From positions 4,072 to 68,071 of the forward strand of contig CAZAFL010000016.1 of assembly GCA_964484465.1 (NCBI GenBank): 64,000 nt of DNA, read 5' to 3'. Both the position numbers and the translations under genes were made by a program. The DNA comes from an uncultured Chlorobiaceae bacterium (GTDB taxonomy: Bacteria; Bacteroidota; Ignavibacteria; UBA10030; SZUA-254). The notes beneath the pieces were generated by a model. That model was not told where the DNA came from. It saw nothing but the letters and a program-made list of their open reading frames with translations, and ran no database searches. Positions 21,690-56,314 of this stretch are shown here, in pieces. The first letter of the stretch is position 1. Each line of letters begins with the position of its first letter.

Positions 21690-21779
21690 GTGTTAGCGAT
21701 TTATTCTTCAGTGCGCTAAATGTCGTTCTCTCAAATTTTTTTATTTAAATACACAAATTGTGATTTCAAAATATCCTCG

Positions 21780-24339: not shown

Positions 24340-24353
24340 ATCAGGAATTGAAT

Positions 24354-26705: not shown

Positions 26706-26785
26706 GATAATTTCATTTAACTAATTCTTATCTAAAATTCCAAACAATCGAAATTGTATGTACTTTTTTTTGACCTCCCCTTAAC

Positions 26786-26807
26786 CCCCTCCTTAAAAAA
26801 AGAGGGG
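26786..26807 (-). promoter_or_regulatory. GC-rich hairpin (CCCCTC / GAGGGG) inside a 246-bp xdhA-xdhB intercistronic gap; a TGCAAA-N4-TTTGCA palindrome lies at 26913-26928
   Basis: Read directly from the sequence. An unusually long gap for an operon interior. Confidence 0.3.
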
Positions 26808-26951
26808 AAATGTGTGGCAATGGTTTCTTCTTTGATTTTTAAGATACTCTAAATCATAACAATTCAGTTTATATTCCAGTCGTGTTCTTTTGCTCGCCTT
26901 CCCTAGGAGTCTTGCAAATAGTTTTGCATCTTTTCGATGTTGTGTTGTTCC

Positions 26952-39987: not shown

Positions 39988-42900
39988 ATGAACAAAACCA
40001 GTTACGGGTTTCTGGTTCTCTGCTGGCTTCTGCTGTGTAACGAATCACTCTTTTCCCAATGGAACTGGCAATCCCCGATCCCTCAGGGGAATGACCTCTT
40101 TAAGGTACAATTCATCAATGATGCCCTCGGCTGGGCTGTCGGAGAATATGGAACTGCACTTCATACCACTAATGCCGGAACAACATGGTACGAGCAGGAA
40201 TTTGGGCGAACAGACAATATTCTCGGAATTAACATGGTCTCCGATACTGAAGGATGGGCGACCGGAGATAATGGAATTATCCTCCATACAACCGACGCCG
40301 GCGACGACTGGGTCGAACAGACAAGCGGGGTTAGTGTCGGTTTAAACTCCCTTGACTTTACTAGCCAATTAGAAGGATGGGTTGCAGGCGACAATGAAGT
40401 AATTCTGCATACAACCAATGGAGGCTCTTCCTGGACGATACAGCATCAGGCTGGCAATAACGGGGTGAGTATCAATAGCATCATGTTTCTGAATAGTAAT
40501 GAAGGATGGGCCGCAGCTGGTAACCGTGTCGTGTTTCACACAACGGACGGAGGGTCGAATTGGATTCGACAATCGGTAGGGATAGCTCCCACTTCATACT
40601 TGTCTGTCTACTTTGTTAACACCTCGCTCGGCTTTCTAGCGGGAACAAATGGCGTCATTCTGAGAACGGACGACGGTGGAACAATGTGGACACAAATAAC
40701 GTCAGGTGTAAACACTAACCTCAATAACATCCTCATGCAGAACTCATTTGTAGGATGGATCGTTGGAGACGCAGGAACACTTTTAAAGACGATAAACGGC
40801 GGACAATCCTGGTCCTTAACGATGATCGGGGACGGAAACGACATCAACGGTCTTTCAAAATTTGGCGGTACATTATGGGCGGTTGGAGGACTTGGAAAAA
40901 TCCTTCTTTCGACAAACAGCGGAGTTGCGTGGGGGACTAACGATGTTGGCTCACGTCTGAGTGCAAATTGGATGGATTTCCCTACGTTGAATGTCGGGGT
41001 TGCTGTAGGCCAGACGGGACTTATCATGCGAACAACAGATGGGGGACATTTATGGCTGGACCAAACTTCACCTACCCCATCGGTATCATGCTACGGAGTA
41101 AAGTTTATCAGCAGCACAACAGGGTGGGCGGTTGGAGATAACGGAACAATTCTCCATACGCATGATGGTGAAACCTGGACCACACAATCAAGTTCTGTTA
41201 CGCATTCGCTCCTCGGCATCACTTTCGGCAATTTCGCAAATGGCTGGATCGTCGGCGGTGAGTTCACAAACTTTACAGGAATCATCTTACACACAACTGA
41301 TGCAGGAAATTCCTGGTCGGTGCAATACAACAACGTACCTCACATTCTTTATGGTATTTCATTTCCAAATGCCACTACCGGATGGGCGGTCGGAGAAGTG
41401 GGCACCATTCTGCACACGACTGACGCCGGCACCACATGGGTCCCAGAGACAAGCGGGGTTAGCAATGCATTGTTCTGGTGTTCTTTTTTAGACTTACAAA
41501 ATGGCTGGGCTGTTGGTGAACTGGGACGCATTCTGTATACGACGAACGGCGGAACAACCTGGAATCCTCAAGCCTCCGGAGTAACAGTCGACTTGTATTC
41601 AGTTGTCGCACGGGATTTATTAGATGCATTAGTCGCGGGAGATAAGGGAGTCATCCTGCACACCTCAGACCGAGGCATTCATTGGGATAATCAATACAGT
41701 CGTACCCAACATAGTCTCTTTGGTGTCACGAGCCCATTCGACTCTGTTATTTGGGCATGTGGTGATTATGGAACAGTCCTTGCAGACACCATTGCCCGAG
41801 TAAATGGGTCTGTTCCAGGGATTGTCTTCTACGACATCAATAATAATGGATTTTATGATGCGGGAGAACCGGGAATGCAGGGGTGGAGAATCGTTCTCGG
41901 AGGTGACAAGGTTGATTCCACACTTTCAGGACCGGACGGTAGTTTTCGGTTTAACGGACTTCTCGACGGTTCATATACTTTATCTCAGGTTGCGCAGTCG
42001 TCGTGGACTCCGACTGTTCCAGTCTCACCAGCCTCTTATTCGTTTACCATTAATTCTACAACACCCAATTTTTCGGGGAATTTTGGTAACTACGCTCCAC
42101 ACGGTTATCCCTATAAAGTGAACAACCGCTGGAATCTTGTTTCTCTCCCTCTACTGGTAACCGATGCGCGAAAGTCTATTGTCTATCCCAACGCGATTTC
42201 CCCTGCGTTTGAATTTGAGGGCGTATATATCCAAAAAGATACTTTACGACCTGGTACCGGCTACTGGTTGAAATTTCCATCACCTCAAACCGTCTGGATT
42301 CCCGGTGAAGCAATTCACACCGACAGTTTTTCCCTAGCCCAGGGCTGGAACCTCATCGGAACAATCAATGACACAGTGCCAGCCGCTTCTGTCACTACAA
42401 ACCCGCCTGGTGTTATCACTTCCCCAATCTACAAATATTCTACCGGATATATTGCTACATCTGTCATTGTTCCCGGGCAGGGGTATTGGGTGAGAGTTAG
42501 TGCTGCGGGAAAAATAATTATGACGTCACCCGGACACCATGCCCCAATGACACATTCATTGTTTACTCAATTCAACAGATCTTCGAACCTCAACAAGATA
42601 TCAATTACGGATTGTGATGGCGGTTCTCAATCTCTTTTCTTTGGCAGGGCAAATGAGTTGAAGGACCCTCAAACATTGTTTGACCTTCCTCCTCTTCCTC
42701 CGAATGGAAGTTTTGATGCTCGTTTTGAAAATGGCAGTACCCTGGCTCTTTTCGACTCGGCAAATAGTCAAAATAATACTGCAATCATTACCATTCAGGC
42801 TTCATGCTACCCTGTCACAATTGCCTGGCATGTTTCGCAACCTGAGGGGTTGAACTACTCATTGCGGGATCCTGCCTCCAATCGTGAATTAGTGAAATCA

Positions 42901-43275
42901 ATGTCCGATTCCGGTTCTGTGGTCATCGACAATCCAGCAATAACCGTTATCTCATTACAAACTCAAGCCGGAAATTCATCGCCGCAGTTACCGAATGAGT
43001 TTGCACTCATGCAAAACCTCCCGAATCCGTTCAATCCAACGACCACAATCAGGTTCGTTCTTCCTGTCCTGAGCAAGGTTCAGCTCTCTATATTCACGAT
43101 TTTGGGCCAAAAAGTAGCAACCCTCGCAGACGGAAATTTCGATGCCGGTACTCACGACATTCATTGGACTCCTTCCCTTGCCAGCGGACTCTATTTCTAC
43201 CGCATTGATGCTGTGAGCCTGGATGGGAAACAACAACACTTTATCCAGACCAGAAAAATGGTTCTTCTAAAATAG
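39988..43275 (+). CDS. T9SS-secreted multi-propeller protein (Ycf48/BNR-like repeats x about 14, SdrD-B/CarboxypepD_reg-like domain, T9SS C-terminal domain)
   Basis: Repeating 'G-x-ILHTTD-x-G-x-x-W' blades, 'GIVFYDINNNGFYDAGEPGMQGWRIVL' B-type domain, and C-terminus 'LPNPFNPTTTIRFVLPVLSKVQLSIFTILGQ'. Confidence 0.7.
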   Translation: MNKTSYGFLVLCWLLLCNESLFSQWNWQSPIPQGNDLFKVQFINDALGWAVGEYGTALHTTNAGTTWYEQEFGRTDNILGINMVSDTEGWATGDNGIILHTTDAGDDWVEQTSGVSVGLNSLDFTSQLEGWVAGDNEVILHTTNGGSSWTIQHQAGNNGVSINSIMFLNSNEGWAAAGNRVVFHTTDGGSNWIRQSVGIAPTSYLSVYFVNTSLGFLAGTNGVILRTDDGGTMWTQITSGVNTNLNNILMQNSFVGWIVGDAGTLLKTINGGQSWSLTMIGDGNDINGLSKFGGTLWAVGGLGKILLSTNSGVAWGTNDVGSRLSANWMDFPTLNVGVAVGQTGLIMRTTDGGHLWLDQTSPTPSVSCYGVKFISSTTGWAVGDNGTILHTHDGETWTTQSSSVTHSLLGITFGNFANGWIVGGEFTNFTGIILHTTDAGNSWSVQYNNVPHILYGISFPNATTGWAVGEVGTILHTTDAGTTWVPETSGVSNALFWCSFLDLQNGWAVGELGRILYTTNGGTTWNPQASGVTVDLYSVVARDLLDALVAGDKGVILHTSDRGIHWDNQYSRTQHSLFGVTSPFDSVIWACGDYGTVLADTIARVNGSVPGIVFYDINNNGFYDAGEPGMQGWRIVLGGDKVDSTLSGPDGSFRFNGLLDGSYTLSQVAQSSWTPTVPVSPASYSFTINSTTPNFSGNFGNYAPHGYPYKVNNRWNLVSLPLLVTDARKSIVYPNAISPAFEFEGVYIQKDTLRPGTGYWLKFPSPQTVWIPGEAIHTDSFSLAQGWNLIGTINDTVPAASVTTNPPGVITSPIYKYSTGYIATSVIVPGQGYWVRVSAAGKIIMTSPGHHAPMTHSLFTQFNRSSNLNKISITDCDGGSQSLFFGRANELKDPQTLFDLPPLPPNGSFDARFENGSTLALFDSANSQNNTAIITIQASCYPVTIAWHVSQPEGLNYSLRDPASNRELVKSMSDSGSVVIDNPAITVISLQTQAGNSSPQLPNEFALMQNLPNPFNPTTTIRFVLPVLSKVQLSIFTILGQKVATLADGNFDAGTHDIHWTPSLASGLYFYRIDAVSLDGKQQHFIQTRKMVLLK

Positions 43276-43929
43276 ATGAAGAAAAGACAAACACTCGCAA
43301 TTCTTGGGTTGATTGTAATATCAGGAAGTATGCTGATCTTTCATGATTGGGGATGCAAGAGCAACGACGAGCCGACTAATCCAGGTTCGGGTGGTAACGC
43401 AAAGTACGGAAAAGGCTCGATGTCGTTTGATGCTCCAGAAGGCGGAGGGCATTTTTCAGCAAACGGTGCATACAAACCGTCTGCTGTATTTCAAAGTGAT
43501 ACTTCAAGCGAAGGTGTTGGGGGATTTGTTTACGATACAACCATCGGAGGGAAACCAGAGCAGGCGGTTTTTGCGGGATATGTTCAATCCCTGAAAAAGG
43601 GGGTTCTTAACGAACGGTTGATCGTTTTCACTCTACATAATACGGCTGGTTCACTCTCGACAGGCGATTACGCGTTAACCAATGCAGATACAATAATGGC
43701 AGGGAAATCTTCATACGTTTATTTTCTGTTCTCCGATTCCGTTCACTTTTATTCAACACTTGAGGCTCAATCCGGAATATTTACTCTTTCCACATTTGAT
43801 TTAGGAACCCATCATGCAGCAGGTACTTTCTCCGGAACATTGCAGGGAATCCCTCCCGACACGACGCATCTCTCAATCACAAACGGCTCATTTGACCTCA
43901 CGTTTGTGACTCGATACTTCACGTACTAA
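43276..43929 (+). CDS. Hypothetical lipoprotein
   Basis: Signal peptide ending at Cys ('HDWGC'). No family recognised. Confidence 0.4.
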   Translation: MKKRQTLAILGLIVISGSMLIFHDWGCKSNDEPTNPGSGGNAKYGKGSMSFDAPEGGGHFSANGAYKPSAVFQSDTSSEGVGGFVYDTTIGGKPEQAVFAGYVQSLKKGVLNERLIVFTLHNTAGSLSTGDYALTNADTIMAGKSSYVYFLFSDSVHFYSTLEAQSGIFTLSTFDLGTHHAAGTFSGTLQGIPPDTTHLSITNGSFDLTFVTRYFTY

Positions 43930-43962
43930 TCGAACAATTCTCCGGCATTTTCTGCAGAACAA

Positions 43963-44358
43963 TTATTGGACCGGCTCAACTTTCGAATACACAAAAAGGC
44001 TCTCCCCACCCTTCTTGATAATCGTGCCTGTCAATTTGACTTCGTGTGCCGCATATTGTGCGAGCTCTTCATTGCCGCCTTTCATTCCCCCCTTTGGGAC
44101 AACAATATACACGGCTTTCGTTTCCTTTTCCAAAATGCCGACTGGCAAATTCCCTTTGATGCAATCGAGCGCGCATTCTTTATGCGCATCAGGATTCTCA
44201 TCCATCATGCCGCTCAGGTAACATCTCACATCAATAATTTCACCGGTGATGGTAACATTCTTTCTTACGCCGTTTTGTTGTTCCCCCTGCGCCCGCATAA
44301 TGATTACAGAACACCCAGTCACCAGCATCAGTATCAACGCGATTCGAATTTTATGCAT
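43963..44358 (-). CDS. Hypothetical lipoprotein (lipobox LVTGC), terminal gene of the cupredoxin cluster
   Basis: Signal and lipobox, Cys/His-containing core (CYL...HKECALDC). 131 aa. Confidence 0.4.
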   Translation of the reverse strand: MHKIRIALILMLVTGCSVIIMRAQGEQQNGVRKNVTITGEIIDVRCYLSGMMDENPDAHKECALDCIKGNLPVGILEKETKAVYIVVPKGGMKGGNEELAQYAAHEVKLTGTIIKKGGESLFVYSKVEPVQ

Positions 44359-44396
44359 TGAAATTCCCCTGTTTCATGAATTCTTATCCTAACAAT

Positions 44397-46511
44397 TTAT
44401 TTTTGAAGCATAATTTTCTTCGTGTCGACAAATGATTTGCCGGAGCCATCAGTGGCAGTTGCGTTAAGCTGGACAAAGTAGACTCCGCTCGCTTCAGCAA
44501 CTGCATTCCAGGTTACAGAATGAACGCCTGCTTCCTGCACACCATCGGTCAGCACTGCGACTATCTGTCCCAGAAGATTGTAGATTATGACACGAACCCG
44601 GCTATCCACCGGCATCTGATACCTGATCGCAGTTACAGGGTTGAACGGGTTAGGATATGTCTCATACAAAGCAAATGACGCGGGGATTACAGCAGACTCT
44701 GAAACATCAAGTGACACCATATGACCGGCTCGTTCAATGTTTACCTCACCGGTTGCAGATAACGGTATTCTCTTGCCGTCAAGATTCAATGATAATCCGT
44801 CGGCCGGGGAGTGCATATTCCATTGAACATTCACTGGATATTCCGCGGAGGAAATCTGAATTGGAAAAGTCCTTGCCCCCTCGTTGTTGAGGAGTTCCAC
44901 AAATGAACCGGAAGCAAAACGGACATCAAACCCACCCATAGGCGGCACCGGCGGCATGTCGAACCATGAACGAATATTCCCATCATCGACTCTGTCACCA
45001 ACGAAATACAGTGTCTGCTCTTTTGCCGCTGCATCCCGGAACACCAACCTGCTTGCCGTCCGGTATAGACTCTCATAGCCGACAGTTTTAGGTGACGCAA
45101 CCGGTCCGGTACCAAGAATGAGCTTCCCCGCCTGACTGACTCTTACCCAGTATCCGGCACCCGACTTTACCGTGTCGGCAGTGTAGTATCCGTTATGGTA
45201 TCCATACAATACCGAACTGATAATCCCTGAAGGAGATGAACTAATGGACGTCCGGAGAACGGGTACTGAAATTGATCCGATCATGTTCCAGCCTTTGACG
45301 ACATTAAATGAATCCTTGTTGACAGAAAATCCATTCATCAAAACTGTCTGAGCACCATTAAACTTTAACCAATAACCTAAACCGACCGACAAAGAAGACT
45401 TCGTCACATAGCCAACTTCATAATCATACGCAGGGGATACTGCTGTAGGATACACGGCTCCCACAGCGGAATCAGATACTTTCAACGGAAGTGAAATCAT
45501 ATTCCATCTTGCCATCACGCTATTCGAAATGGTCAGCGCCCCGACAAATAATCTTCCCTTCATTCCTACCGAGGCGTGTGGAACGCACATGTAGTAATAA
45601 AGACCGCTTTGTGAAGTTACAACAGTTCCCCCGCCATACGAAAGATTAAATCCCCCGTTAGAAACAGTATCATTAGCAAGCCACGTGGATTTGCTTACTT
45701 CCCGTGCCGTATGCATGGGGTCCAAAACAAAGTGGACGATAGCGCCAGGGGGAACTGCAAGACTCTCCGGAACAAATGTAAAGCCTGAATTTATCACTGT
45801 ATAAGGAGCGTAATTGATGAAATCAACCGAACGGACATCGCCCGACGTGACAGTAAAGGATTTTTGTTTAACAGATGTTACACCCTGTGAAACACCATTG
45901 ACATTTATTGAAAGATGGGACCACTGAGCGCTGTCTGCTTCGACGGCAACGTATGTTCCCTCGCTTAGATTGTTCACGTTGAGCGTAGAGGCAGAGAGGG
46001 CGGAATCGAGAATGATCCCGGAACCGACAGAGTCCTGGTAGAGGTACAGCTTCCATGGTTTCGCTATCTGGTCACCGGTTGTCGCTATATTCCCATCCTG
46101 ATCGATAAAACTGCTAATGTTAATCGTATTTGGAAGCGGAGAGTTGACGACAATGCGCCCTTTCATTCCCATCGGAGCATGAGGTTCACAAACATAATAA
46201 TGTATGCCAAGGCCCGACGGAACGACAATCCCGCCGCCGAAGGGCGTTGAAAATCCTTCCCCCAGTGGTGTAGCTTCATTTGCGTTCCATGTTGATTCGC
46301 TCACTTCAACAACATCATGTATTCCATCGAGAACAAATTTCACCGTGTCCCCGTTAACAATAGATATGGAATCGGGAACGAACGTAAAACCGGAATTCGT
46401 CACAGTGTGGATGGTTCCAAAACTCCTGAAACAGCAAAATAATACTAATAAAACGGGGTAAACAATTTTTTTCATGGTTCTTACATCCTTCGATTGATGA
46501 GATATGGCCAT
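44397..46511 (-). CDS. T9SS-secreted protein with at least two plastocyanin-like cupredoxin domains
   Basis: Type-1 Cu ligand sets 'YYVCEPHAPMGMKG' and 'YYMCVPHASVGMKG' with upstream His ('GIHDVVEV', 'PMHTAREV'). C-terminus 'YPNPFNPVTAIRYQMP...' is a T9SS C-terminal domain. 704 aa. Confidence 0.7.
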   Translation of the reverse strand: MAISHQSKDVRTMKKIVYPVLLVLFCCFRSFGTIHTVTNSGFTFVPDSISIVNGDTVKFVLDGIHDVVEVSESTWNANEATPLGEGFSTPFGGGIVVPSGLGIHYYVCEPHAPMGMKGRIVVNSPLPNTINISSFIDQDGNIATTGDQIAKPWKLYLYQDSVGSGIILDSALSASTLNVNNLSEGTYVAVEADSAQWSHLSINVNGVSQGVTSVKQKSFTVTSGDVRSVDFINYAPYTVINSGFTFVPESLAVPPGAIVHFVLDPMHTAREVSKSTWLANDTVSNGGFNLSYGGGTVVTSQSGLYYYMCVPHASVGMKGRLFVGALTISNSVMARWNMISLPLKVSDSAVGAVYPTAVSPAYDYEVGYVTKSSLSVGLGYWLKFNGAQTVLMNGFSVNKDSFNVVKGWNMIGSISVPVLRTSISSSPSGIISSVLYGYHNGYYTADTVKSGAGYWVRVSQAGKLILGTGPVASPKTVGYESLYRTASRLVFRDAAAKEQTLYFVGDRVDDGNIRSWFDMPPVPPMGGFDVRFASGSFVELLNNEGARTFPIQISSAEYPVNVQWNMHSPADGLSLNLDGKRIPLSATGEVNIERAGHMVSLDVSESAVIPASFALYETYPNPFNPVTAIRYQMPVDSRVRVIIYNLLGQIVAVLTDGVQEAGVHSVTWNAVAEASGVYFVQLNATATDGSGKSFVDTKKIMLQK

Positions 46512-46551
46512 TCCCTAATTACTTGCTGCAGGCTTGGAATGTAACGATTAT

Positions 46552-47199
46552 TTATTTCAGAAACACCATTTTTCTGCCTCGCTCGAAGCGTCCGGCCGAA
46601 ATTCTGTAAATATAAACTCCGGTGCTCATGTATGCTGCATTGAAGTGCACAGTATGAGTACCGGCGTCAATGTGCTGGTTATCGATCAATGTTGCAATTT
46701 CATCGCCGTCGATGCCGTACACCTTCAGCGTGACCGTTGAACCCGTCGCTAATTTGAACATAATATCAGTAGAAGGATTAAAGGGATTCGGATAATTCTG
46801 CAGCAGGTCAAATTTCGGGGGTACGTTGTTACCTTCGTCAACAGATGTCGCCGTCGTCGTGTCGACAGTGATGATTCCTTTCATCCCAAAAGATGAATGA
46901 GGCTGGCAAACATAATAATGCGTTCCTCCATGTGAGAATACAACCGTCCCTCCCCCAAATCCTACGGAGAAGCCTCCGGAAAGCGGCGTAAATCCATTTG
47001 CCTGCCATGTCGCCTGGCTTACTTCAACAGCATTATGAATAGATTCAAGAACGAACCTGCCTGTATCACCGACTGTAACCGAAAGATTACTCGGTGCAAA
47101 TCCAAAACCCGAAGTGTTAATTGTGTGAACTGCTCCAGCGGCAAGAGAACCGACGAGAGCTGTTATGAGAACAAACAAGAACAATCGTTGCAGTATCAT
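46552..47199 (-). CDS. T9SS-secreted single-domain plastocyanin-like cupredoxin
   Basis: 'SIHNAVEV ... YYVCQPHSSFGMKGIITV' and the T9SS C-terminal domain 'YPNPFNPSTDIMFKLA...'. Confidence 0.75.
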   Translation of the reverse strand: MILQRLFLFVLITALVGSLAAGAVHTINTSGFGFAPSNLSVTVGDTGRFVLESIHNAVEVSQATWQANGFTPLSGGFSVGFGGGTVVFSHGGTHYYVCQPHSSFGMKGIITVDTTTATSVDEGNNVPPKFDLLQNYPNPFNPSTDIMFKLATGSTVTLKVYGIDGDEIATLIDNQHIDAGTHTVHFNAAYMSTGVYIYRISAGRFERGRKMVFLK

Positions 47200-47367
47200 A
47201 CACCCTTTCTTAAGTTTAATTTGAATAATGTTGGCTCAACATCACAGAAAAAAAATAAACCGATACAACGGCGATTACTAAGTTCTTATTCCCTCATAGT
47301 ATAAAGGAATCGACCCGTGGTAACTACGAACCGCCCAATGAACAGCAGTATAATGAATGCAAAAAGC

Positions 47368-47790
47368 CTATTGCACAATAATAGTACCCACCATACCCAT
47401 GGCACGATGATATGTGCAGAAATACGAATACGTTCCAGTGGTGTTGAACGTAAACGTCTTGCTACTGCCCGCGGGCATGTTTCCTGTATCCCAAACTCCT
47501 GCATCACTCGTTGCAGTGTGTGCAATGCCATCAGTATTCTTCCACGTTACTGTTGTACCGCGTGAAACAGTCAATGTACTCGGACTAAATGCCATGCTGC
47601 TCATGGTGACGGTGTTCGGCGAAGGATTGCCGCCCGGATTTGGCGACGTCGGATAATTCGCCGACTGGTCCATACAACCCGCAATGGCAAACGCTACAAG
47701 ACACGTTACTATCAGAGCAAATCTGCATCGATTCCTGGTACTAATACGTCTTTCAATTCCATGTGTTCTTAGCATAATCATAAACCTCAC
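47368..47790 (-). CDS. Blue-copper (plastocyanin/pseudoazurin-like) lipoprotein
   Basis: Lipobox 'AIAGC'. Cu ligands 'GIAHTA' and 'YFCTYHRAMGMVG'. 140 aa. Confidence 0.75.
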   Translation of the reverse strand: MRFMIMLRTHGIERRISTRNRCRFALIVTCLVAFAIAGCMDQSANYPTSPNPGGNPSPNTVTMSSMAFSPSTLTVSRGTTVTWKNTDGIAHTATSDAGVWDTGNMPAGSSKTFTFNTTGTYSYFCTYHRAMGMVGTIIVQ

Positions 47791-47944
47791 TAATTTTTAC
47801 TTCAGCATTACATTACCACAATTGTCATACCAAACTGAAAAGCAACAAAACAGAGTACTTTAAAAGAATCCTGAGGCTCATGTGTGCAATTAATGTCACT
47901 ATTATCTGCTTCGATAGGAGATATTTGTAGCAGGAAATCCACAT

Positions 47945-48058
47945 GCTTTGAGGTGTTGATGTGGATAAGAGAGGAAGGAACGGAGTAGAATGGTAGTTGA
48001 GTAGACGAGTGTTTAAGTAGTGGAGTATGTTAGTAAGTTAGTGTAGAGAATGTGTGCT
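47945..48058. repeat. About 110-nt compositionally extreme tract (C-less on plus, G-less on the transcribed minus strand) with reiterated GTAG/AGTA/TTAGTAAG units
   Basis: Direct reading: only 2-3 C in about 110 nt. Lies between the regulator stop and the cupredoxin operon. Confidence 0.5.
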
Positions 48059-48076
48059 CCGCCGGTACTGACTGAG

Positions 48077-49489
48077 TTACTCGCGGTACAGTGAAGGGTC
48101 GATTGAATATTCTTCCAGCTTGCGATAGATTGTTCTTCGGTCAACGTCCATCATTCGTGCAACCAGGTTGAGGTTACCTTTGCATTCTTTCAGCATCCGG
48201 ACAAGATATTTTTGCTCTGCATCCCGCACAATGTTGTCGAGATAACGTTTGTACGAAAGTGTAGTGGTGGCAGGCTGGTCGAGCGATTCTGACCCGGCGA
48301 CAGCCGTACCGGAATTAGGAAGTTCCAATGAAGTGATCGTCTGGCCCGACGCTTTAATGATGGCACGTTTGATAAGGTTTTCCAGCTCACGGATATTTCC
48401 CCTCCACTGGTTATTCATCATATCATGGATAACTGTCGGCGCAAAACCGATGACCGGCTGTCGCGAAAGAGACTGATATTTCTTAAGAAAATGTTCGGCA
48501 AGCAACGGAATATCATCGAGCCTCTCGCGCAGTGGCGGAAGTGTAATCGGAAACACATTCAGCCGGTACAGAAGGTCTTCCCTGAACTTTCCTTCGTTGA
48601 CCATCGATTCGAGACTTCTGTTGGTTGCCGCTATGATGCGAACATCAGCGGTGAGGGAGACGTTGTTTCCAAGCCTCGAGAACAACTTTTCCTGCAGCAC
48701 CCGAAGAAGTTTTGTCTGAAGCTCGAGTGGAAGGTCGCCAATCTCATCGAGAAAGACGGTGCCGCCCTGCGCTTCTTCAAATTTTCCGCGATGCTGACGT
48801 ATGGCACCTGTGAACGCCCCTTTCTCATATCCAAAGAGTTCGCTCTCCAAAAGCGTTGCGGGTATTGCAGAACATTGAACGACAACAAGAGGCATATCCC
48901 GGCGTGGGCTATTGTAGTGAATTGATTTCGCAATCAGCTCCTTCCCTGTTCCTGTTTCACCAAGTACCAGCACGGTCACATCGGTTTCGGCGACTTGCTG
49001 AACAAGCTTAAACACCTGTTTCATTTTCTCGTTCGTGCTGATGATGTTCGAAAAATTCGCTTCCCCTTCGACAAGGTTTCGAAGACGGGCAAGCTCTTTT
49101 GAAACTCTTCGTTCATCGACAGCGCGCTTTATTTTTATGACGAGCTCGTCATTGTTGCACGGTTTCGTGATGTAATCATACGCACCGTGACGCATCGCTT
49201 CGACTGCAGTCTGCACAGAACCGAAACCAGTGACCATTATCACCGTCACATCCGGCACCGTTTTTTTGATGTGCTGAAGCAGCTCCACACCATTCATCCC
49301 TTCCATCACAAGGTCTGAAAGAACGAGGTCAAATGCTTCTTCAGTCAGAAGATGCCTTGCCTCTTCACTCCCTTTTGCGGTCCGGACTGTATATCCTTCA
49401 TCCTTAAGCAACGCATTAGTGGCAAGACGGAATGCTTTATCGTCATCGACAATAAGAATATGAATATCCGAATTTCCCTGAGGTTTCAT
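48077..49489 (-). CDS. Sigma-54-dependent response regulator (receiver, AAA+ activator, Fis-type HTH)
   Basis: 'ILIVDDD', 'GETGTGKE', 'ESELFGYEKGAFTGA', C-terminal HTH. The ORF track extends to 49543; the start used here is the internal Met 'MKPQGN'. There is a short overlap with the kinase gene. Confidence 0.85.
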   Translation of the reverse strand: MKPQGNSDIHILIVDDDKAFRLATNALLKDEGYTVRTAKGSEEARHLLTEEAFDLVLSDLVMEGMNGVELLQHIKKTVPDVTVIMVTGFGSVQTAVEAMRHGAYDYITKPCNNDELVIKIKRAVDERRVSKELARLRNLVEGEANFSNIISTNEKMKQVFKLVQQVAETDVTVLVLGETGTGKELIAKSIHYNSPRRDMPLVVVQCSAIPATLLESELFGYEKGAFTGAIRQHRGKFEEAQGGTVFLDEIGDLPLELQTKLLRVLQEKLFSRLGNNVSLTADVRIIAATNRSLESMVNEGKFREDLLYRLNVFPITLPPLRERLDDIPLLAEHFLKKYQSLSRQPVIGFAPTVIHDMMNNQWRGNIRELENLIKRAIIKASGQTITSLELPNSGTAVAGSESLDQPATTTLSYKRYLDNIVRDAEQKYLVRMLKECKGNLNLVARMMDVDRRTIYRKLEEYSIDPSLYRE

Positions 49490-49496
49490 ATTGAAG

Positions 49497-51314
49497 TTAT
49501 GAATGATAGATGGGGAATGATAGCGTGAATGTCGTTCCTTCACCTATTTTACTTTTCACGGAAATTGTTCCGTCGTGCTGTTTGACAATGCCATATGTGA
49601 CCGACAATCCTAATCCAACGCCGCTCACTGTATTTTTCGTGGTGAAGAATGCATCGAAAATGCGGTCGATATGGTCCTTCGGGATGCCGACGCCGTTATC
49701 CGACACTTCCACAACAATATGTTCATTCTCACGCGTCGATGCGATCGTAATTATCCCGCCATCGGGAAGCGCGTCGTGAGCGTTTACAATCAGATTCAAA
49801 AAAACCTGTTTCAGTTTGTCGGCAGAACCCAAAATCGGCGGCAAGGAACTCATTGCGTTCAACCGCACTTCGATCCTGTCTTCCTTCAGCGTTGCTTTAG
49901 ACGATGTTACAACTTCCTGAATAATATCCTCCAGTGAGACGGGTTCGCGCTTCAGCTCAACCATTGAAGTGCGGTACACATCGAGCATCTGGCGGGTGAG
50001 TTTCGCAAGCCGCTCCACTTCTTCGCCCGCGACATCAAGTAAATCCCGGTCAGGTGATACCGCGCTCATCCGGCGCAATACAGTCTGTAGACAGCTTTGA
50101 ATATTATGGATGGGATTATTGATCTCATGGGCAAGTTGGGCAGTAAGTTTTCCCGTCGCGGCAAGACGTTCCGATTTCACAAGCTCCATCTGGGTATCCT
50201 TTAAGCGCTGGAGTGTCGCTTCGAGTTCCGCGTTCCGTTCTCCGAGCTGGGAAATTTTCTCCTTGAGGGAATTGCTCATCTCTTCAAACTTCTGTGCGAG
50301 GTATTTCAGTTCACCCCCTCCTCCGACAACGATGCGGTGCTCGTAATTTCCCCGGCTTATCTCCGTCGTCCCGTTCACGAGTGCTGCAATCGGCCTCGTG
50401 ATTCCCTGAGAAATGAGAAACCCGATTCCGGCAGTAACGATAAGTACAATCACCGAGAGGATTTCGAACGTACGCAGAACCGGTGCAAGGACGGCCTGCA
50501 CTTCCGCTTCAATCGGTTTCATGAGAAGAAAACCGGCTGCGTGCGCCACATTGACGTCACCGTGGTCGAGGCGACACCATGTCGCGGCAAATTTATTCTG
50601 AGGAGTGTGAATTGTGAAGACTGAAGCACTACCGCGAAACAGCAGCGTCTTCAAACTGATTAATGGGGACCGCAACCACCCGCTGAGATCATGTTCTGAA
50701 TTTGCGTCGAGGGTCGACGATACAGCAATTGAATCAACGGCAAGAAGAGTTTCACTGTTCGTCATCGCGCGGATCGACTGAATATCATTCTGACGGATCC
50801 TGAAACCCATCGTTAACGTTCCGACAACATCCGGACCAATCGATAACGGAACCGTCGCGATACGATAGACACCATTCAAACTGCTCCAGACATCCGTTGA
50901 TGACTCCTTGCGCATTGCGTTGGTGATTGAGGGAAGAAGAGTAAAGTCAATGGATATGCGGCGTCCATCGACAAGAGTTACGAGCGGACTTCCGTGAGCG
51001 TTGGAAAGAATAAACACATCACTTTTCATGCTCTGGTTGAGCTCCTGACACATCTGGTCCGCGGTATTCCTATCGCCGATTTCGACGACCGCCTTCAGCC
51101 GTGGTGTTTCTGCGACTATTTGACACGACCTCAGGATTTCGTTCGCGCGCAGGACCTCGAATTCATTCACAGCGGAGAAATTGCTCTTGAGATCCTCATA
51201 AAATCGTGATTCGACCTGCTCCCGCACGGAGTATGTCAGGACAAAATAGGTAATCACGAGCAAGACCAGCACGACCCCCCAGATTGCAAGTAATATCTTG
51301 GTACGAAACTTCAT
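49497..51314 (-). CDS. Sensor histidine kinase with a large periplasmic (Cache-like) domain, HAMP, HisKA, HATPase_c
   Basis: Two TM segments bracket a sensor domain of about 270 aa. 'AHEINNPIHNI' H-box. 'DNGVGIP' and 'GLGLSVTYGIV' G-boxes. Confidence 0.85.
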   Translation of the reverse strand: MKFRTKILLAIWGVVLVLLVITYFVLTYSVREQVESRFYEDLKSNFSAVNEFEVLRANEILRSCQIVAETPRLKAVVEIGDRNTADQMCQELNQSMKSDVFILSNAHGSPLVTLVDGRRISIDFTLLPSITNAMRKESSTDVWSSLNGVYRIATVPLSIGPDVVGTLTMGFRIRQNDIQSIRAMTNSETLLAVDSIAVSSTLDANSEHDLSGWLRSPLISLKTLLFRGSASVFTIHTPQNKFAATWCRLDHGDVNVAHAAGFLLMKPIEAEVQAVLAPVLRTFEILSVIVLIVTAGIGFLISQGITRPIAALVNGTTEISRGNYEHRIVVGGGGELKYLAQKFEEMSNSLKEKISQLGERNAELEATLQRLKDTQMELVKSERLAATGKLTAQLAHEINNPIHNIQSCLQTVLRRMSAVSPDRDLLDVAGEEVERLAKLTRQMLDVYRTSMVELKREPVSLEDIIQEVVTSSKATLKEDRIEVRLNAMSSLPPILGSADKLKQVFLNLIVNAHDALPDGGIITIASTRENEHIVVEVSDNGVGIPKDHIDRIFDAFFTTKNTVSGVGLGLSVTYGIVKQHDGTISVKSKIGEGTTFTLSFPIYHS

Positions 51315-51336
51315 TTTTTACATGGCGAATTTCGTC

Positions 51337-52536
51337 CTAGAAACTAACGACTGCTTGAATCGCCCCAAGCTGTTCGATAGGACCGGAAAGCAAGCTGATA
51401 ATATTATTCCACCGGTACGCAAATTTCAGCTGAGACTCCCGCGTCAGGCGATAACCGGCGGCGACCTCAAACCTCACAACGTCGTGGTCCCATCTGCCAT
51501 TATAATAATAGATGGTTGAGTAGCTTGGGTCCTGAACGTTTGCTTCTACGGTGCCGAAAAATACTCCGCCCGCACGACCCGAAATTGTACATCGCGGAAA
51601 CACTGTGTATGAACCTTCGAGCGAATAACCCCATGCAGTCAATCCATCTCCATAAAGCTGGTCGAATTTCCAGATATTGTAAATTGCCTCTCCGTAAAGC
51701 GCAAAATGACCAACACTGAATTCAACATCCCCTTCAAGGAGGTGCTGCCGAAAAACCGAATTACCGGAACCCGTATATGTCCCGGACGACTGGCTGACAT
51801 TGACCTGACCATCCGAGTAGGACCCACCGATTGTCAGGCCAGTCATTGGCGTCAACGCGAGCCGGAAAATCACACCAAACCTGTCATTCGCATTGAGCCC
51901 CTGGTTTGCATAAACGCTTGTAACACTGACAGTCCCATTGATAATTGCAAACGCATAGTCGACAATTCCTTCACTTCCTGAAACTTTAAAGCCGAGGTCG
52001 TAGAGCCCGCGGTCGAGCAGGCGTACGCCATTGCCCGCAACTGTAAATCGGGTATCGAACGGCCATATCTGATAATCCGGATAACGCAATGAGGTATAAT
52101 GTTCATGCATAAGAGGAAGATTGACAAACGGGTTTTTCATCGGGAAGCGGCGACTGCCAAGATTTCCGACTGGGAGTTCAATTTCGCCGGCTTCCAGAGA
52201 AAGATTCAATGGACTCACGTTTGAAATTTTAATAGAGAAGAGGTCGACACGCAGCGCCTGATCCTGAAGAATACGGATGTTGCTTTGAAACGTGATATTC
52301 TCAGAAACCAGAGCATCCGTAAAAAGGTCGAGCCGCCAGTTAAACGTCGAACGACCACCGTTATAGATATACTGAGACTGCTGAGCATCCGATTTAATTA
52401 TTGCGGTAGATGCCTGACCGCTGAAATTTAATTGCGCGTTTGAAGAGAATGCCATGAGAAATGTTCCAAGCAGGATGCCGGCCATCCTGAGAGAACGGGA
52501 CAATGTTCCCAACCTTATCATTTGAAAATCACTCAT
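51337..52536 (-). CDS. Outer-membrane beta-barrel (porin-like) protein
   Basis: Signal peptide, alternating beta-strand pattern, C-terminal '...AVVSF'. Confidence 0.5.
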   Translation of the reverse strand: MSDFQMIRLGTLSRSLRMAGILLGTFLMAFSSNAQLNFSGQASTAIIKSDAQQSQYIYNGGRSTFNWRLDLFTDALVSENITFQSNIRILQDQALRVDLFSIKISNVSPLNLSLEAGEIELPVGNLGSRRFPMKNPFVNLPLMHEHYTSLRYPDYQIWPFDTRFTVAGNGVRLLDRGLYDLGFKVSGSEGIVDYAFAIINGTVSVTSVYANQGLNANDRFGVIFRLALTPMTGLTIGGSYSDGQVNVSQSSGTYTGSGNSVFRQHLLEGDVEFSVGHFALYGEAIYNIWKFDQLYGDGLTAWGYSLEGSYTVFPRCTISGRAGGVFFGTVEANVQDPSYSTIYYYNGRWDHDVVRFEVAAGYRLTRESQLKFAYRWNNIISLLSGPIEQLGAIQAVVSF

Positions 52537-52548
52537 CTTTATTACCGG

Positions 52549-53250
52549 TTATTCCGAATATCCAAAATTAATTGTAGAAGTCTGATCCGCATGGACAGTG
52601 ACAGTCATCGTCGACATCTTTTTTCTTCCATACCAGTAGCTTAAACGATACGTTCCTGCCGGAACATTTTTGATGATGTACGATCCATCCTCTTCGGGAA
52701 CGGTAAAGTATGGATTCGAAAGCACAAGGATTGTCGCGTACATGTACGTATGGATGTCACAATAGATTTTCGTCACACCTTCTTTGTCAAACGTGACCGA
52801 CTTCGACCTCCCCTGTGGATAGCGCCCGAGGTCAAATTCTTTTGGCTGAGAGTAGGAGAAAACGTTATGGTAAAGATTATCATTATTCGGAAAATCGACC
52901 GTAGTTCCCACGATCACAGGAAGCACCAGCGGATGAAACATCATCTGAGATTGAAGGAGTTTTGGGTTAACTTCCGGCACTGTATAAGTTGAGTCGTTGC
53001 TCATCGATTCGATATACACCACAGCTTTCTCGGCAAGCTTGTAAGGTTTGACAGCCTCTTCTGAGTTTGCGCCATGGCTCTGGTATCGCATGAGCATTCG
53101 TCCTCTCATAATTTCTTCCGTCAATTCGTCGGTTGCAGGGACGGCGACTTTCCCCCGAATGCTGCCCGTGAGCTGAGCTGATGAACTGCCGCCAAACAGC
53201 ATCATGCCAAAAAGCATAATACACCCGACTGAAAAAGTATTTAATTTCAT
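52549..53250 (-). CDS. Secreted cupredoxin-like protein with a C-terminal CarboxypepD_reg-like beta-sandwich
   Basis: Possible type-1 Cu ligand set 'NLYHNV ... IYCDIHTYM' (C-x2-H-x2-M, amicyanin-like spacing). 'YIIKNVPAGTYRLSYWY' matches a carboxypeptidase-regulatory-domain pattern. Confidence 0.45.
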   Translation of the reverse strand: MKLNTFSVGCIMLFGMMLFGGSSSAQLTGSIRGKVAVPATDELTEEIMRGRMLMRYQSHGANSEEAVKPYKLAEKAVVYIESMSNDSTYTVPEVNPKLLQSQMMFHPLVLPVIVGTTVDFPNNDNLYHNVFSYSQPKEFDLGRYPQGRSKSVTFDKEGVTKIYCDIHTYMYATILVLSNPYFTVPEEDGSYIIKNVPAGTYRLSYWYGRKKMSTMTVTVHADQTSTINFGYSE

Positions 53251-53520
53251 TGGTAAGAGAGGATGACGAGAACCGTCGTTTTGACGTACTACTGATGGAA
53301 TTTCATCGAATGTACGTTATTTGAGGGAAGAATCAAAATCTCCATAAATAACCCCCCTCCAAAACTCCCAAAAAAAAGTTCCCTTAGCAAAGCGTCAATC
53401 GAAACATGACGATAAGAAACTCGTTATGCCTTGCGAGCTACCTACGGTCTTCGACTTCGCTCGTCCCGTGCCGACACCTCGGGACGGGATTCGCTACGCT
53501 CAGACTGACGGGTTGACAAG

Positions 53521-53547
53521 TTGGTCGGGAGTGCAGCTCCCGACCAA
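53521..53547. repeat. Palindromic element copy 1: TTGGTCGGGAG-tgcag-CTCCCGACCAA
   Basis: Perfect 11-bp stem. Shares its core with copy 2 (GGTCGGGAG / CTCCCGACCAAC). Confidence 0.6.
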
Positions 53548-53574
53548 CAATGCAATCCATCTTGTAAATCCTGG

Positions 53575-54786
53575 TCAATCATGGCCATCATTTTCATCAT
53601 CGCGCTCGGCACTGGCAGGAGCGATGCTCTTTAGATAACCGAACAAGCCGTCAGCTTCTTCATTGGGTCCTGCAGTGAAGAAGAGTCGTCGTTGAGCATT
53701 ACCTTGATCTCCTTGATTGTTATCGTCTCCCTGCTGATCATCATTCTGTTGTACATCACCGGCTCCGAAGGCAAGTGCCCACAGCCCCGGGATAACTATC
53801 GGGTTCCCCTGTGAATCGGCAAGCTGTTCCACAAATTTCCCGTGCAGGTCGAATAGATTGATTCTGCCGTCGCCGAAATTTCCGACGATGATCGCATTCC
53901 TGGATTGTCCGAACCCGTCTTCGGGAACCTTCGCCAATCCCCATGGTGAATTAAGCGTGCCCTGCGAAGCAAATCTTGAGATGAGCGTACCGTCGGTTTT
54001 AAAGATATCGACATATCCGTTTCCCGGACCGGATTCATCATCCTGGTTATCGGGGCCTTTCTGTTTCGCATAGGTCACAAAAAGATTGCCTCCGATATTT
54101 GCAATATTGAACGGCGCGAAGCCCGCGGGAATATTCGGGTCGATGAATTTTTTCGCCGAATCGTATTGGAAGTGGTCGTCAAATGCATCGACAGTTCCAC
54201 CTTTGAAGTTGGTCGCGTAGATGAAGCTCTTTCCGTCGGCCCATCCTTTGGTGATACCTTTGTAGACGGCTTCAAACGACGAGCGGTCTGCAACGACTTT
54301 CGCGCTATTGCCGGAAGCCCATGCCGAAATGATGCCATCTTCGCTCGCGAAAATGAACCTGCTCACTTCACCAGTTGACGGAATCACAAATCCGGTTGTG
54401 GAATTGAAAATAACGCCTGTCGGCGCACCGCCGGTTGAGCTGCTGCTTGTCGGGATTGTCACGGGCGGGCGGATTTCATTCCCATCCTTGTCGTAGATGA
54501 CTGAAACGCTTCCGTGGTTCGATGAAATCCAGATTCTTCCGGTTGGGGTCATTGCGATACCCCAGGCGTTGAGCAGATTATTGTCGATTCTTGCCGGTGA
54601 AAAGCTCGAATTGTTGGCAACGAGGTTTACCTGTACCACCGATGGAACTCCTGAAGTTATAAGCTCAGATACTCCCCCTTTCTGGAGAGCGGTTACTGGA
54701 GGGTCGCTGACGCTATTTTTACAACCGCCGGCAATCAGCCCGGCAACGAGACATATCACCCCAACGCATTTCAATTTTGTAAACAT
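53575..54786 (-). CDS. NHL/beta-propeller lipoprotein (TIGR03118-like conserved hypothetical) with a highly acidic C-terminal tail
   Basis: Lipobox 'LIAGGC', repeated beta-propeller blade patterns, C-terminus 'DDQQGDDNNQGDQGN...ERDDENDGHD'. Confidence 0.45.
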   Translation of the reverse strand: MFTKLKCVGVICLVAGLIAGGCKNSVSDPPVTALQKGGVSELITSGVPSVVQVNLVANNSSFSPARIDNNLLNAWGIAMTPTGRIWISSNHGSVSVIYDKDGNEIRPPVTIPTSSSSTGGAPTGVIFNSTTGFVIPSTGEVSRFIFASEDGIISAWASGNSAKVVADRSSFEAVYKGITKGWADGKSFIYATNFKGGTVDAFDDHFQYDSAKKFIDPNIPAGFAPFNIANIGGNLFVTYAKQKGPDNQDDESGPGNGYVDIFKTDGTLISRFASQGTLNSPWGLAKVPEDGFGQSRNAIIVGNFGDGRINLFDLHGKFVEQLADSQGNPIVIPGLWALAFGAGDVQQNDDQQGDDNNQGDQGNAQRRLFFTAGPNEEADGLFGYLKSIAPASAERDDENDGHD

Positions 54787-54904
54787 AATTTTGCCCCTTT
54801 CATAATGTTAATTCACGCTGTCCCAAAGGGATCACTTCGGGATAATTCCTCTCTTTGAAAAAGAGAGGGATGTAATGACAACGTTGTTTATTCTGGTCCC
54901 AGGC

Positions 54905-54929
54905 TGGTCGGGAGTTTTACTCCCGACCA
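54905..54929. repeat. Palindromic element copy 2: TGGTCGGGAG-tttta-CTCCCGACCA, with an adjacent CCTCTCTTT-gaa-AAAGAGAGG hairpin at 54848-54868
   Basis: Direct reading. The two copies bracket the beta-propeller lipoprotein gene. Confidence 0.6.
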
Positions 54930-55273
54930 ACGTAGGGCATCGAAGGATGTACCGCAATGGATTATTGGTACGACCGTTACTACAGGGGTGCTCCCTAAAC
55001 ACTCCTGCAGGGGCCATTGGATACTATGACAAATGCTGTACCAAGAAAAAAATGACAATATTGGTTAATTATGGAAGAAAAGAGATTGGGGATGGTGCAT
55101 TGGTGTCACAAGTGGATGAATAAGACGGAGAAGAATGTTGCATTAGGGCGACAAGGGTGCAAGAAGATATTGTGAATCTGCCGTTGTGTTCAAGCATCGT
55201 TATTTGTTAATTGGATATACACAATGCTTTTTTATGCCTTGAGGCAAAACGTCAGGCAAAGGTAAGCAGCCCA

Positions 55274-56182: not shown

Positions 56183-56314
56183 ATACTATCTTAAATTTGA
56201 CACTCTTTAGATCGTGCTGCGAGCTTTCGCATATCTATTTAATTACGCACCGCATATACATTGGAATGCTTAAAGCAACTAACGTAATTCAAGCTCCGAG
56301 TTTCAATAACGCCA

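Follow-up and report, generated by a model that had tools for sequence, protein, structure and literature searches.

A conserved module of a cupredoxin, a porin-like protein and a histidine kinase beside sigma-54-type promoters and genes for predicted T9SS-exported blue-copper proteins in an uncultured member of the Ignavibacteria

What is accomplished by a gene cluster in which four blue-copper (cupredoxin) proteins, two of them apparently exported to the cell surface, are encoded around a two-component system and an outer-membrane protein? The question was raised by a window of 64,000 nt, the whole stretch analysed here, from an uncultured Chlorobiaceae bacterium of the class Ignavibacteria (contig CAZAFL010000016.1, positions 4,072 to 68,071). 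Nine genes lie in a row on its minus strand at 43963-54786 and are designated, in the order of transcription, gI, gH, gG, gF, gE, gD, gC, gB, and gA. An original prediction, made from the letters of the sequence, described a set of copper electron carriers, partly delivered by the type IX secretion system (T9SS) and under sigma-54 control; its gene coordinates were confirmed, all on the minus strand, and its range also takes in gA, which it had left undescribed. The explanation favoured here, with moderate confidence, is that the locus has two layers, a conserved envelope sensor of redox type together with its regulator, and a variable sigma-54 output that these would drive.

The first layer comprises gH (52549-53250; the NCBI gene call starts at 53217), gG (51337-52536), gF (49497-51314), and gE (48077-49489), separated by 12 nt (gH-gG), 22 nt (gG-gF), and 7 nt (gF-gE); the likely ATG start of gE is at 49489, and taking its longest open reading frame (ORF), which starts at 49543, would make it overlap gF. 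The first gene of this module, gH, encodes a secreted amicyanin-like cupredoxin continued by a CarboxypepD_reg (transthyretin-like) domain, and the other three encode an outer-membrane porin-like protein, a membrane histidine kinase, and an NtrC-type regulator, respectively. At least 705 database relatives of gH were found, and a relative is encoded in at least 123 species-level genomes. Among 80 gH loci fetched for synteny counts, a gG homologue was adjacent in 55, a histidine kinase in 61, both in 51, and a sigma-54 regulator in 34, the phyla including Bacteroidota (Ignavibacteria-like metagenome-assembled genomes), KSB1, Calditrichota, Gemmatimonadota, Acidobacteriota (Vicinamibacterales), Omnitrophota, and Myxococcota. 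The gene order varied with the phylum (gH-gG-kinase, gG-gH-kinase, or gH-kinase-gG), which speaks for selection on the association and not mere operon inheritance, and in many Bacteroidota a hybrid kinase of ~870 amino acids (aa) takes the place of the kinase and gE pair. Judged by synteny, gH, gG, and a kinase, usually with an activator, are a module conserved across at least eight phyla; no description of the four-gene module was present in the literature searched. The original prediction named gH as a fourth cupredoxin-like protein and placed it, with a porin-like protein, upstream of the kinase and regulator. Both are present, but instead of being mere further carriers they form, with the kinase, a cross-phylum module that mostly has no other cupredoxin nearby. 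A fixed link between module and cupredoxin genes was considered and rejected, since a gD-type gene occurred in 6 of ~80 loci and a gB-type gene in 4.

The protein predicted for gH scored 24.9 bits against PF00127 (gathering threshold 21.2 bits), and its CarboxypepD_reg domain scored 27.7 bits, under the cut-off of that model. Residues H128, C164, H167, and M170 were invariant in 30 homologues. An AlphaFold2 (AF2) model, the cupredoxin fold being modelled for gH alone among the four proteins, had a predicted local distance difference test score (pLDDT) of 82.4 and matched amicyanin and plastocyanin structures in Foldseek with E values of 1e-5 to 1e-3 (amicyanin 1sf3, E 1.3e-5). These four copper ligands are the only invariant potential metal ligands across the alignments of gH, gG, and gF, no invariant Cys, His, or Met being present in the kinase sensor domain or in gG in the homologue alignments.

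No Pfam or NCBIfam match, and thus no Pfam porin family, was obtained for gG. Its AF2 model, built from 13 sequences (pLDDT 73.7, predicted template modelling score 0.73), is a porin-like barrel of 16 strands, as expected from the predicted beta-barrel outer-membrane protein, and the best PDB match in Foldseek was OprP (2o4v; E 1.7e-13, TM-score 0.60), followed by Omp32 and OmpF. These porin matches have TM-scores of 0.47-0.60 at ~11% identity and derive from a model of moderate confidence. The most conserved segment of gG is a long loop between strands 5 and 6, in the place of the L3 constriction loop of classical porins, which suggests a solute-selective channel; this loop (residues 121-178) is modelled at low confidence.

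In gF, a transmembrane segment, a periplasmic domain of ~260 aa resembling dCache_3, and a second transmembrane segment precede HAMP, HisKA, and HATPase_c domains, the last three of which were matched in Pfam. The term Cache kinase used in the original prediction holds for the family, in which 13 of 14 homologous sensor domains matched dCache_3 (PF14827, threshold 25.7 bits; best E 3.1e-11); the copy in the window itself reached 16.5 bits (E 0.0066), below that threshold. The best PDB match of the sensor-domain profile was the periplasmic domain of LuxQ (3c30, E 0.0037). The assignment of gE as an NtrC-type, sigma-54 enhancer-binding response regulator was upheld by matches to Response_reg (108.4 bits), Sigma54_activat (239.6 bits, with GAFTGA in the translation), and HTH_8 (36.4 bits); it remained under all NCBIfam equivalog cut-offs, the top scorers being AtoC, NtrC, and ZraR.

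Which genes this module may control was indicated by a promoter and enhancer pair. A 286-nt spacer precedes gD, and in it a -24/-12 sigma-54-type promoter is located at nt 47818-47832 on the minus strand (TGGTATGACAATTGT, an exact match to TGGYAY-N5-TTGY), with an inverted repeat 111 nt upstream at nt 47926-47943 (TGTGGATTTCCTGCTACA, strand-neutral, one mismatch to TGTGG-N8-CCACA) that is the predicted gE enhancer, or upstream activating sequence (UAS). Two exact matches to TGGYAY-N5-TTGY occur in the 64 kb (0.92 expected), before gD and before gI. The latter (TGGTACAGCATTTGT, nt 55029-55043, minus strand) lies 243 nt upstream of gI, and a UAS-like inverted repeat (TGTCGCCCTAATGCAACA, nt 55136-55153, strand-neutral, two mismatches to the consensus) lies 110 nt upstream of it, a spacing as at gD. 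The predicted second gE target, gI (53575-54786), encodes a lipoprotein of the TIGR03118 family (306.4 bits; cut-off 79.95), predicted to be an NHL-like beta-propeller, with weak similarity to NHL and TRIM3.

The promoter sequence was found ~45-90 nt before the start of all six gD orthologues (those of the window and of the related loci L005, L012, L015, L018, and L031), and in related loci the inverted repeat lies 65-120 nt upstream of the promoter. Promoter and repeat together were present before gD orthologues in L005, L012, L015, and L031; before gI orthologues, which there follow gE, in L005, L011, and L031; before the T9SS gene after gE in L025 and a T9SS gene with CHRD domains in L029 and L030; and before a small gene preceding gH in L023, L024, L027, and L028. 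Over 1.36 Mb, 17 of the 41 promoter matches had a repeat 40-140 nt upstream, as against 0-3 in reversed or shuffled controls. Because the pair is conserved before gD, gI, and their orthologues, sigma-54 control of the cluster, as originally predicted, is well supported at the sequence level. The repeat would be bound by gE, which would activate gD and gI and most likely switches on gD, gC, and gB, the extension to gC, gB, and gA being presumptive. The promoter emerged from comparing the regions upstream of gD orthologues; a scan demanding GC at -12 had missed the sites in the window, and the canonical TGGCAC-N5-TTGC with up to two mismatches was uninformative (49 matches versus 53 expected). 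A similar inverted repeat at 47229-47246, just upstream of gC, was taken as a chance match, having two mismatches and the wrong distance for an enhancer. L029 and L030 have the promoter with the variant repeat TGAGG-N8-CCTCA.

The second layer in the window begins with gD (47368-47781; ORF to 47790), gC (46552-47199), and gB (44397-46475; ORF to 46511), with 168 nt before gC and 40 nt between gC and gB. The first encodes a cupredoxin with a Gly/Ser/Pro linker and the lipobox IAGC, the Cys of which is kept in five orthologues, in agreement with its description as a lipoprotein. The product of gC consists of a putative signal peptide, one cupredoxin domain at aa 24-113, and, at aa 136-215, a T9SS type-A sorting domain, and that of gB of a putative signal peptide, a first cupredoxin domain, an Ig-like spacer, a second cupredoxin domain, a stalk of ~290 aa, and a T9SS type-A sorting domain. 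PF00127 scores were 58.8 bits for gD, 48.6 bits for gB, in two stretches as the at least two domains predicted for it would require, and 29.9 bits for gC; PF13473 also matched gD, at 44 bits. In HMMER alignments the His/Cys/His/Met residues of gC and gD fall on the type-1 copper ligands of solved plastocyanins and pseudoazurin, while the two domains of gB are 50-56% identical to gC with a gap-free alignment of the ligand loop, and 53% identical to each other. All four proteins thus exceed the PF00127 threshold with the four residues aligned to ligand positions, as originally predicted, and gB, gC, gD, and gH are, on these alignments, genuine blue-copper proteins with complete predicted type-1 ligand sets.

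By sequence they are of two subfamilies, the domains of gB and gC on the one hand and gD with gH on the other, the nearest relative of gD within the cluster being the cupredoxin domain of gH (36% identity). The ligand loop of gB and gC is spaced C-x2-H-x4-M, as in plastocyanin, and that of gH C-x2-H-x2-M, as in amicyanin; gD has a Met at both spacings, and its orthologues in L015 and L018 retain the short one only. None of the four reached the NCBIfam cut-offs (88-147 bits) for plastocyanin (TIGR02656), pseudoazurin (TIGR02375), amicyanin (TIGR02657), halocyanin (TIGR03102), or rusticyanin (TIGR03095), the best score against a named carrier being that of gD with plastocyanin (53.7 bits), and they are accordingly placed, by profile score, outside those characterised carrier subfamilies.

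Export of gB and gC by the T9SS, also part of the original prediction, agreed with both curated models: scores were 38.5 and 28.3 bits, respectively, for TIGR04183 (cut-off 23) and 35.5 and 28.0 bits for PF18962 (cut-off 27), the matches lying at the C-terminal end (residues 619-688 of 704 in gB, 136-206 of 215 in gC). The N-termini of both, judged by eye, are hydrophobic with Ala/Gly cleavage-type sites. No por/gld/spr genes for the T9SS machinery were present within the 64-kb window; at least five further genes with T9SS C-terminal domains (CTDs) lie in it, which suggests an active T9SS. Such an arrangement had been called unusual, and this was contradicted by the family. An exhaustive search with the gC domain gave 1143 cluster representatives (50% identity) at E ≤1e-3 and 621 at E ≤1e-10, and among the 134 nearest relatives PF00127 was matched in 129, Por_Secre_tail in 105, a type-B CHU_C signal in 14, and the phytocyanin-type PF02298 in 31. 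The sorting-domain architecture is, to judge from these matches, dominant in the gC-type family, in which H55, C98, and H101 were invariant and M106 was at least 90% conserved across the 134 proteins. Some members have 6-12 tandem cupredoxin domains, the longest being P0179 (3670 aa, 12 matched stretches), and two carry DM13 domains. The giant relatives (P0179, P0194 of 2938 aa, P0199 of 2532 aa, and P0243 of 1893 aa) could be "copper wire" surface proteins. In P0306 a cupredoxin is fused to a CHRD domain, which ties the family to the CHRD cargo regulated in Ignavibacterium-type loci. A full-text literature search returned no paper joining T9SS with blue-copper proteins, nor Ignavibacteria with cupredoxins, and T9SS cupredoxins appear to be a large, uncharacterised class of cargo.

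That the output varies was seen in the related loci. In L023, L024, L027, and L028, the gene under the same promoter encodes a lipoprotein c-type cytochrome with CxxCH (PSCyt1, 32.8 and 29.3 bits; cut-off 22). Homologues of this cytochrome adjoin the module in 13 loci, including some of Acidobacteriota, and no overlap with the copper carrier was found: the 13 cytochrome loci are all without a gD-type cupredoxin, as the six gD loci are without the cytochrome. From this distribution the copper carrier and the haem carrier look interchangeable, and a role of gD in electron transfer, with a signal related to redox, is favoured over a regulon specific to copper alone; with cytochrome c in place of the lipoprotein cupredoxin, a redox role becomes more plausible. 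The T9SS cargo beside gE varied likewise, being cupredoxins in the window, L005, L012, and L031; a protein of four CHRD domains in L029, L030, and L032; a BNR/Ycf48-like protein in L028, L034, and L035; and CarboxypepD_reg/SdrD repeats in L021, L022, L025, and L027. A T9SS cargo gene directly follows gE on the same strand in at least nine loci. In L005, L012, and L031, gB-like genes come directly after gD-like genes (gaps of 12, 76, and 150 nt), the block there standing on the other side of the module.

Further observations were made in these loci. In the Ignavibacterium-type loci L029 (15236-18120), L030 (15243-18285), and L032 (15336-18553), the four-CHRD T9SS gene (434 bits) is followed by two small genes for PSCyt1 cytochrome c. 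An MFS_3 (EntS-like) transporter gene stands beside the module in nine Bacteroidota loci (L001/L014, 14576-17031; L003, L007, L008, L010, and L020; L005, 915-4305; L031, 2518-5949). A radical SAM/SPASM gene comes after it in L001/L014, and a gene for a radical SAM protein of 670 aa before it in L005 and L031; a small exported molecule might be linked to the system in such genomes.

Taken together, the favoured explanation would work as follows. The porin-like gG, a substrate-specific channel on this view, would let a small solute into the periplasm, where either the solute or the local redox pool would react with the type-1 copper protein gH. The kinase gF, having no conserved metal ligands of its own, would read the state of gH as LuxQ reads LuxP and would phosphorylate gE, which, bound in that form to TGTGG-N8-CCACA enhancers, would open the sigma-54 promoters upstream of gD and gI. 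The gD transcript probably continues into gC, gB, and gA. Sec would carry the products of gC and gB over the inner membrane and the T9SS would take them through the outer one, placing one and two blue-copper domains, respectively, on or outside the surface, while gD would remain lipid-anchored in the envelope; the three together would be an inducible set of copper-based electron carriers for a redox process extending from periplasm to surface. What the sequences show directly are the identities of the domains, the conservation of the ligands, the synteny of the module, and the conserved pair of promoter and enhancer; the contact between gH and gF, redox state instead of copper availability as the signal, the joint transcription of gC, gB, and gA with gD, the location at the surface, and any flow of electrons are inferred.

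Several observations weigh against the two-layer explanation. In Pfam scans of most window ORFs of at least 110 aa, no NirK, multicopper oxidase, Cyc2, or multihaem cytochrome was found, nor a copper ATPase, and the only CxxCH protein in the 64 kb is a dihaem cytochrome (4410-5561) ~40 kb away. A folded cupredoxin cannot fit a 16-strand porin, so that no conduit across the outer membrane is evident, and type-1 copper sites alter little in structure upon redox change or copper loss, making them unobvious sources of allosteric signals. Four of the six gD promoters, that of the window among them, have TTGT at -12, where TTGC is canonical. Before gH, no promoter of the TGGYAY-N5-TTGY type was found in the window. 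Neither gC nor gB has a recognisable promoter or enhancer of its own, their control by gE being read from synteny, and gD is followed by a weak terminator-like hairpin (47311-47333, minus strand; an 8-pair stem with 4 GC, then a T-rich tail) that may attenuate read-through into gC; terminator-like sites in the region were no more numerous than in shuffled sequences. Moreover, many Bacteroidota modules have a hybrid kinase, lack the sigma-54 regulator, and are followed by the MFS_3 transporter in place of redox proteins, indicating that the output of the module is not always redox carriers.

The alternative that survives best, although clearly less probable than the two-layer explanation, is a copper-availability switch, in which occupancy of the gH site would report periplasmic copper entering through gG, and gF and gE would turn on either the copper-requiring proteins gD, gC, and gB, solely while copper is at hand, or surface proteins that handle copper; the T9SS cupredoxins could then be surface stores or buffers of copper and not electron carriers. 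The only conserved metal site of the sensor is a copper site, the window targets of known fold are all copper proteins, and the copper-responsive curA locus of Myxococcus xanthus combines a cupredoxin-like protein, CorS, CorR, and a beta-propeller lipoprotein (PMC3707914), a mix like that of gH, gF, gE, and gI. However, interchangeable carriers fit better with the replacement of the cupredoxin by PSCyt1 cytochrome c in the 13 related loci, several of which have the same promoter and enhancer; no CopA, CusABC, CopC/D, or multicopper oxidase was found in the locus or in the related loci examined; and a full His/Cys/His/Met type-1 site is what electron-transfer proteins typically have, whereas sites for sensing or trafficking copper are usually Met- or His-rich.

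Doubtful, and less probable again, is a chain for extracellular electron transfer, the strong form of the original idea, with gD as the periplasmic shuttle, gH and gG as a haem-free gate in the outer membrane comparable to Cyc2 or porin-cytochrome complexes, and gC and gB exchanging electrons with minerals, humics, or metal ions; the kinase and regulator would serve only to induce the pathway. The predicted localisations would fit, namely a lipoprotein carrier, a periplasmic copper protein beside a porin, and copper proteins at the surface; sister loci have either a cupredoxin or a cytochrome c as the carrier, and the tandem domains or DM13 fusions in the gC family would suit wire-like surface proteins. 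Against this, the kinase is the chief companion of gH and gG, and a neighbouring carrier or surface redox protein is often missing; gG is devoid of haem and metal sites; nothing in the locus connects to the quinone pool or a terminal oxidase or reductase; and the regulated T9SS cargo elsewhere is very different (BNR/Ycf48-like, CarboxypepD_reg repeats, CHRD). A protein-in-barrel conduit of the MtrAB type made of gG and gH was rejected, as 16 strands with a conserved L3-like loop leave no space for another protein inside. Extracellular electron transfer or a denitrification relay at the surface, as proposed in the original prediction, thus found no direct support; with no partner enzyme (NirK, multicopper oxidase, Cyc2, or multihaem conduit) in the window, these ideas have the logic of localisation as their footing.

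The least probable of the alternatives is a coincidental neighbourhood. The module would then have a different target, or act on itself and gD alone, and gC, gB, and gA would be independently expressed T9SS surface proteins, a kind of which this genome has many, lying downstream by chance. In its favour are at least five other T9SS-CTD genes in the window, the hairpin after gD, the lack of a recognisable sigma-54 promoter before gC and gB, and the absence of gC and gA counterparts from the related loci. Against it, three other genomes have a gB-like gene directly after a gD-like one, still attached to the module although the block there stands on its other side, and T9SS cargo follows gE in at least nine loci, with promoter and enhancer in three (L025, L029, and L030).

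A bolder form of the two-layer explanation is that gH, gG, and gF are an unrecognised envelope redox sensor deploying a haem-free blue-copper relay to the surface via the T9SS, which is considered unlikely. If true, a dedicated porin and a type-1 copper protein would inform a dCache_3 kinase about the redox state of an electron donor or acceptor in the periplasm or outside the cell. Such a system would parallel multihaem extracellular electron transfer on the basis of copper, and it would occur widely in Bacteroidota, Acidobacteriota, and Gemmatimonadota.

At the end of the run, gA (43963-44358, minus strand) begins 38 nt after gB and encodes a secreted or lipoprotein orphan of 131 aa (LVTGC; C-x16-C-x3-C), with no significant match in Pfam, NCBIfam, or the PDB and no homologue in the 80 related loci; it was otherwise recorded only in a Logan contig, and its position would make it part of the system. 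Convergent with the cluster, a plus-strand gene at 39988-43275 encodes a BNR/Ycf48-like T9SS protein of 1095 aa (PSII_BNR 191 bits; Por_Secre_tail 22.5 bits, below the cut-off). No promoter or UAS was found upstream of it within the window; it may belong to the system, as homologues directly follow gE in other phyla, BNR-protein homologues being beside gE in L028, L034, L035, and L036. Residues 332-704 of gB (44397-45518) share 38% identity over 391 residues with the C-terminus of this protein, and the unit of stalk and sorting domain (~390 aa) recurs on other T9SS cargo in related loci and looks like a reusable cassette for surface display. Adjacent to the BNR gene by stop and start (translational coupling), 43276-43929 encodes a lipoprotein-like protein of 217 aa that resembles the Riean_0653 family at 35.3 bits, under the cut-off of 57; L022 and L027 have ORFs of comparable length (196 and 203 aa) behind their large T9SS genes, homology not being detected.

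On the other side, two copies (81% identical) of a 32-nt palindromic hairpin resembling repetitive extragenic palindromes (GGTCGGGAG-N5-CTCCCGACC; 53517-53548 and 54900-54931) flank gI, one in its 5' leader and the other just past its stop codon. An Rfam scan of 43000-56500, including the long gI and gH leaders, matched no family. Between the gI promoter region and a BNR/Sortilin-like T9SS gene (56315-58852), a gene for an Mrr-type restriction endonuclease (55274-56182) breaks the stretch rich in surface proteins. Farther away, a T9SS-CTD protein of 285 aa (PF18962, 36.7 bits) is encoded beside the only c-type cytochrome of the window (dihaem, ~380 aa, similar to CytoC_RC) at 3406-5561, and a PAS/HAMP kinase and a stand-alone receiver are encoded next to this pair at 984-3308. 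The minus-strand region 9678-28388 encodes two molybdenum hydroxylases of the xanthine-dehydrogenase type with FAD and 2Fe-2S subunits, XdhC, an amidohydrolase, carbamate kinase, two OTCase-type carbamoyltransferases, a deaminase, an RnfC/Nuo51-like protein, and a shell protein with tandem bacterial microcompartment domains (159 bits; gene 13612-14169). It looks like an island for purine or xanthine catabolism, which may be enclosed in a bacterial microcompartment.

In comparison with known systems, the cluster differs from the outer-membrane redox conduits, that is, Cyc2, MtrCAB/PioAB, and the porin-cytochrome complexes of Geobacter (PMC4245776), in having no CxxCH in gG, gH, or any other cluster gene. 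The gG barrel has 16 strands and an L3-like loop versus the 26-strand sheath of MtrB, the metal centre here is copper, and in the genomes gG and gH associate most strongly with a sensor kinase and not with respiratory genes. Plastocyanin, pseudoazurin, and amicyanin (PF00127) are resembled by gB, gC, gD, and gH in the full His-Cys-His-Met set and, as modelled for gH, in the cupredoxin fold; unlike these single-domain copper carriers, gB and gC have T9SS sorting domains, gB has a stalk, and gH is fused to CarboxypepD_reg, and the window has no known redox partner (photosystem, methylamine dehydrogenase, or NirK). The switch between cupredoxin and cytochrome c recalls the exchange of plastocyanin and cytochrome c6, here in non-photosynthetic bacteria.

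Characterised T9SS cargo consists mostly of proteases, glycoside hydrolases, and adhesins. Like other type-A cargo, gB and gC combine a putative signal peptide at the N-terminus with a sorting domain that exceeds both curated cut-offs, and what sets them apart is that blue-copper cargo was undescribed in the T9SS papers of the searched literature, despite the large sequence family; this class bears on how the surfaces of the Fibrobacterota-Chlorobiota-Bacteroidota group deal with metals, humics, or oxygen.

The CorSR/curA system of M. xanthus unites the genes of a sigma-54 regulator, a HAMP histidine kinase, a secreted cupredoxin-like protein, and a beta-propeller lipoprotein, with sigma-54 promoters among them (PMC3707914). 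The window has the same four component types and sigma-54 promoters inside the cluster. By contrast, curA holds the multicopper oxidase CuoA and the P1B-ATPase CopA, neither of which was found in the Pfam scans of the window, its cupredoxin-like protein is of the His-rich PF13473 type, and it has no porin partner or T9SS cargo.

A parallel for the proposed sensing is LuxP-LuxQ, and also TorT-TorS, LuxQ sensing through its partner protein LuxP. Shared with these is a kinase whose periplasmic domain resembles the tandem-PAS/dCache_3 type, has no conserved ligand residues, and is encoded beside a periplasmic protein having the only conserved binding site; unlike them, the system has a copper protein as the presumed partner where they have a periplasmic solute-binding protein, it includes a dedicated porin, and the similarity to LuxQ is weak (E 0.0037). 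If true, the use of a copper redox protein as the co-sensor of a histidine kinase would give two-component signalling a new kind of input, in carriers that belong to soil and sediment phyla hard to cultivate. The predicted TGTGG-N8-CCACA enhancer and its promoter define a directly testable regulon, and since the module is present in L029, a locus of the Ignavibacterium album type, experiments may be feasible in a cultivated relative. Most worth attention are the broad, uncharacterised sensor module and the interchange of cupredoxin and cytochrome c.

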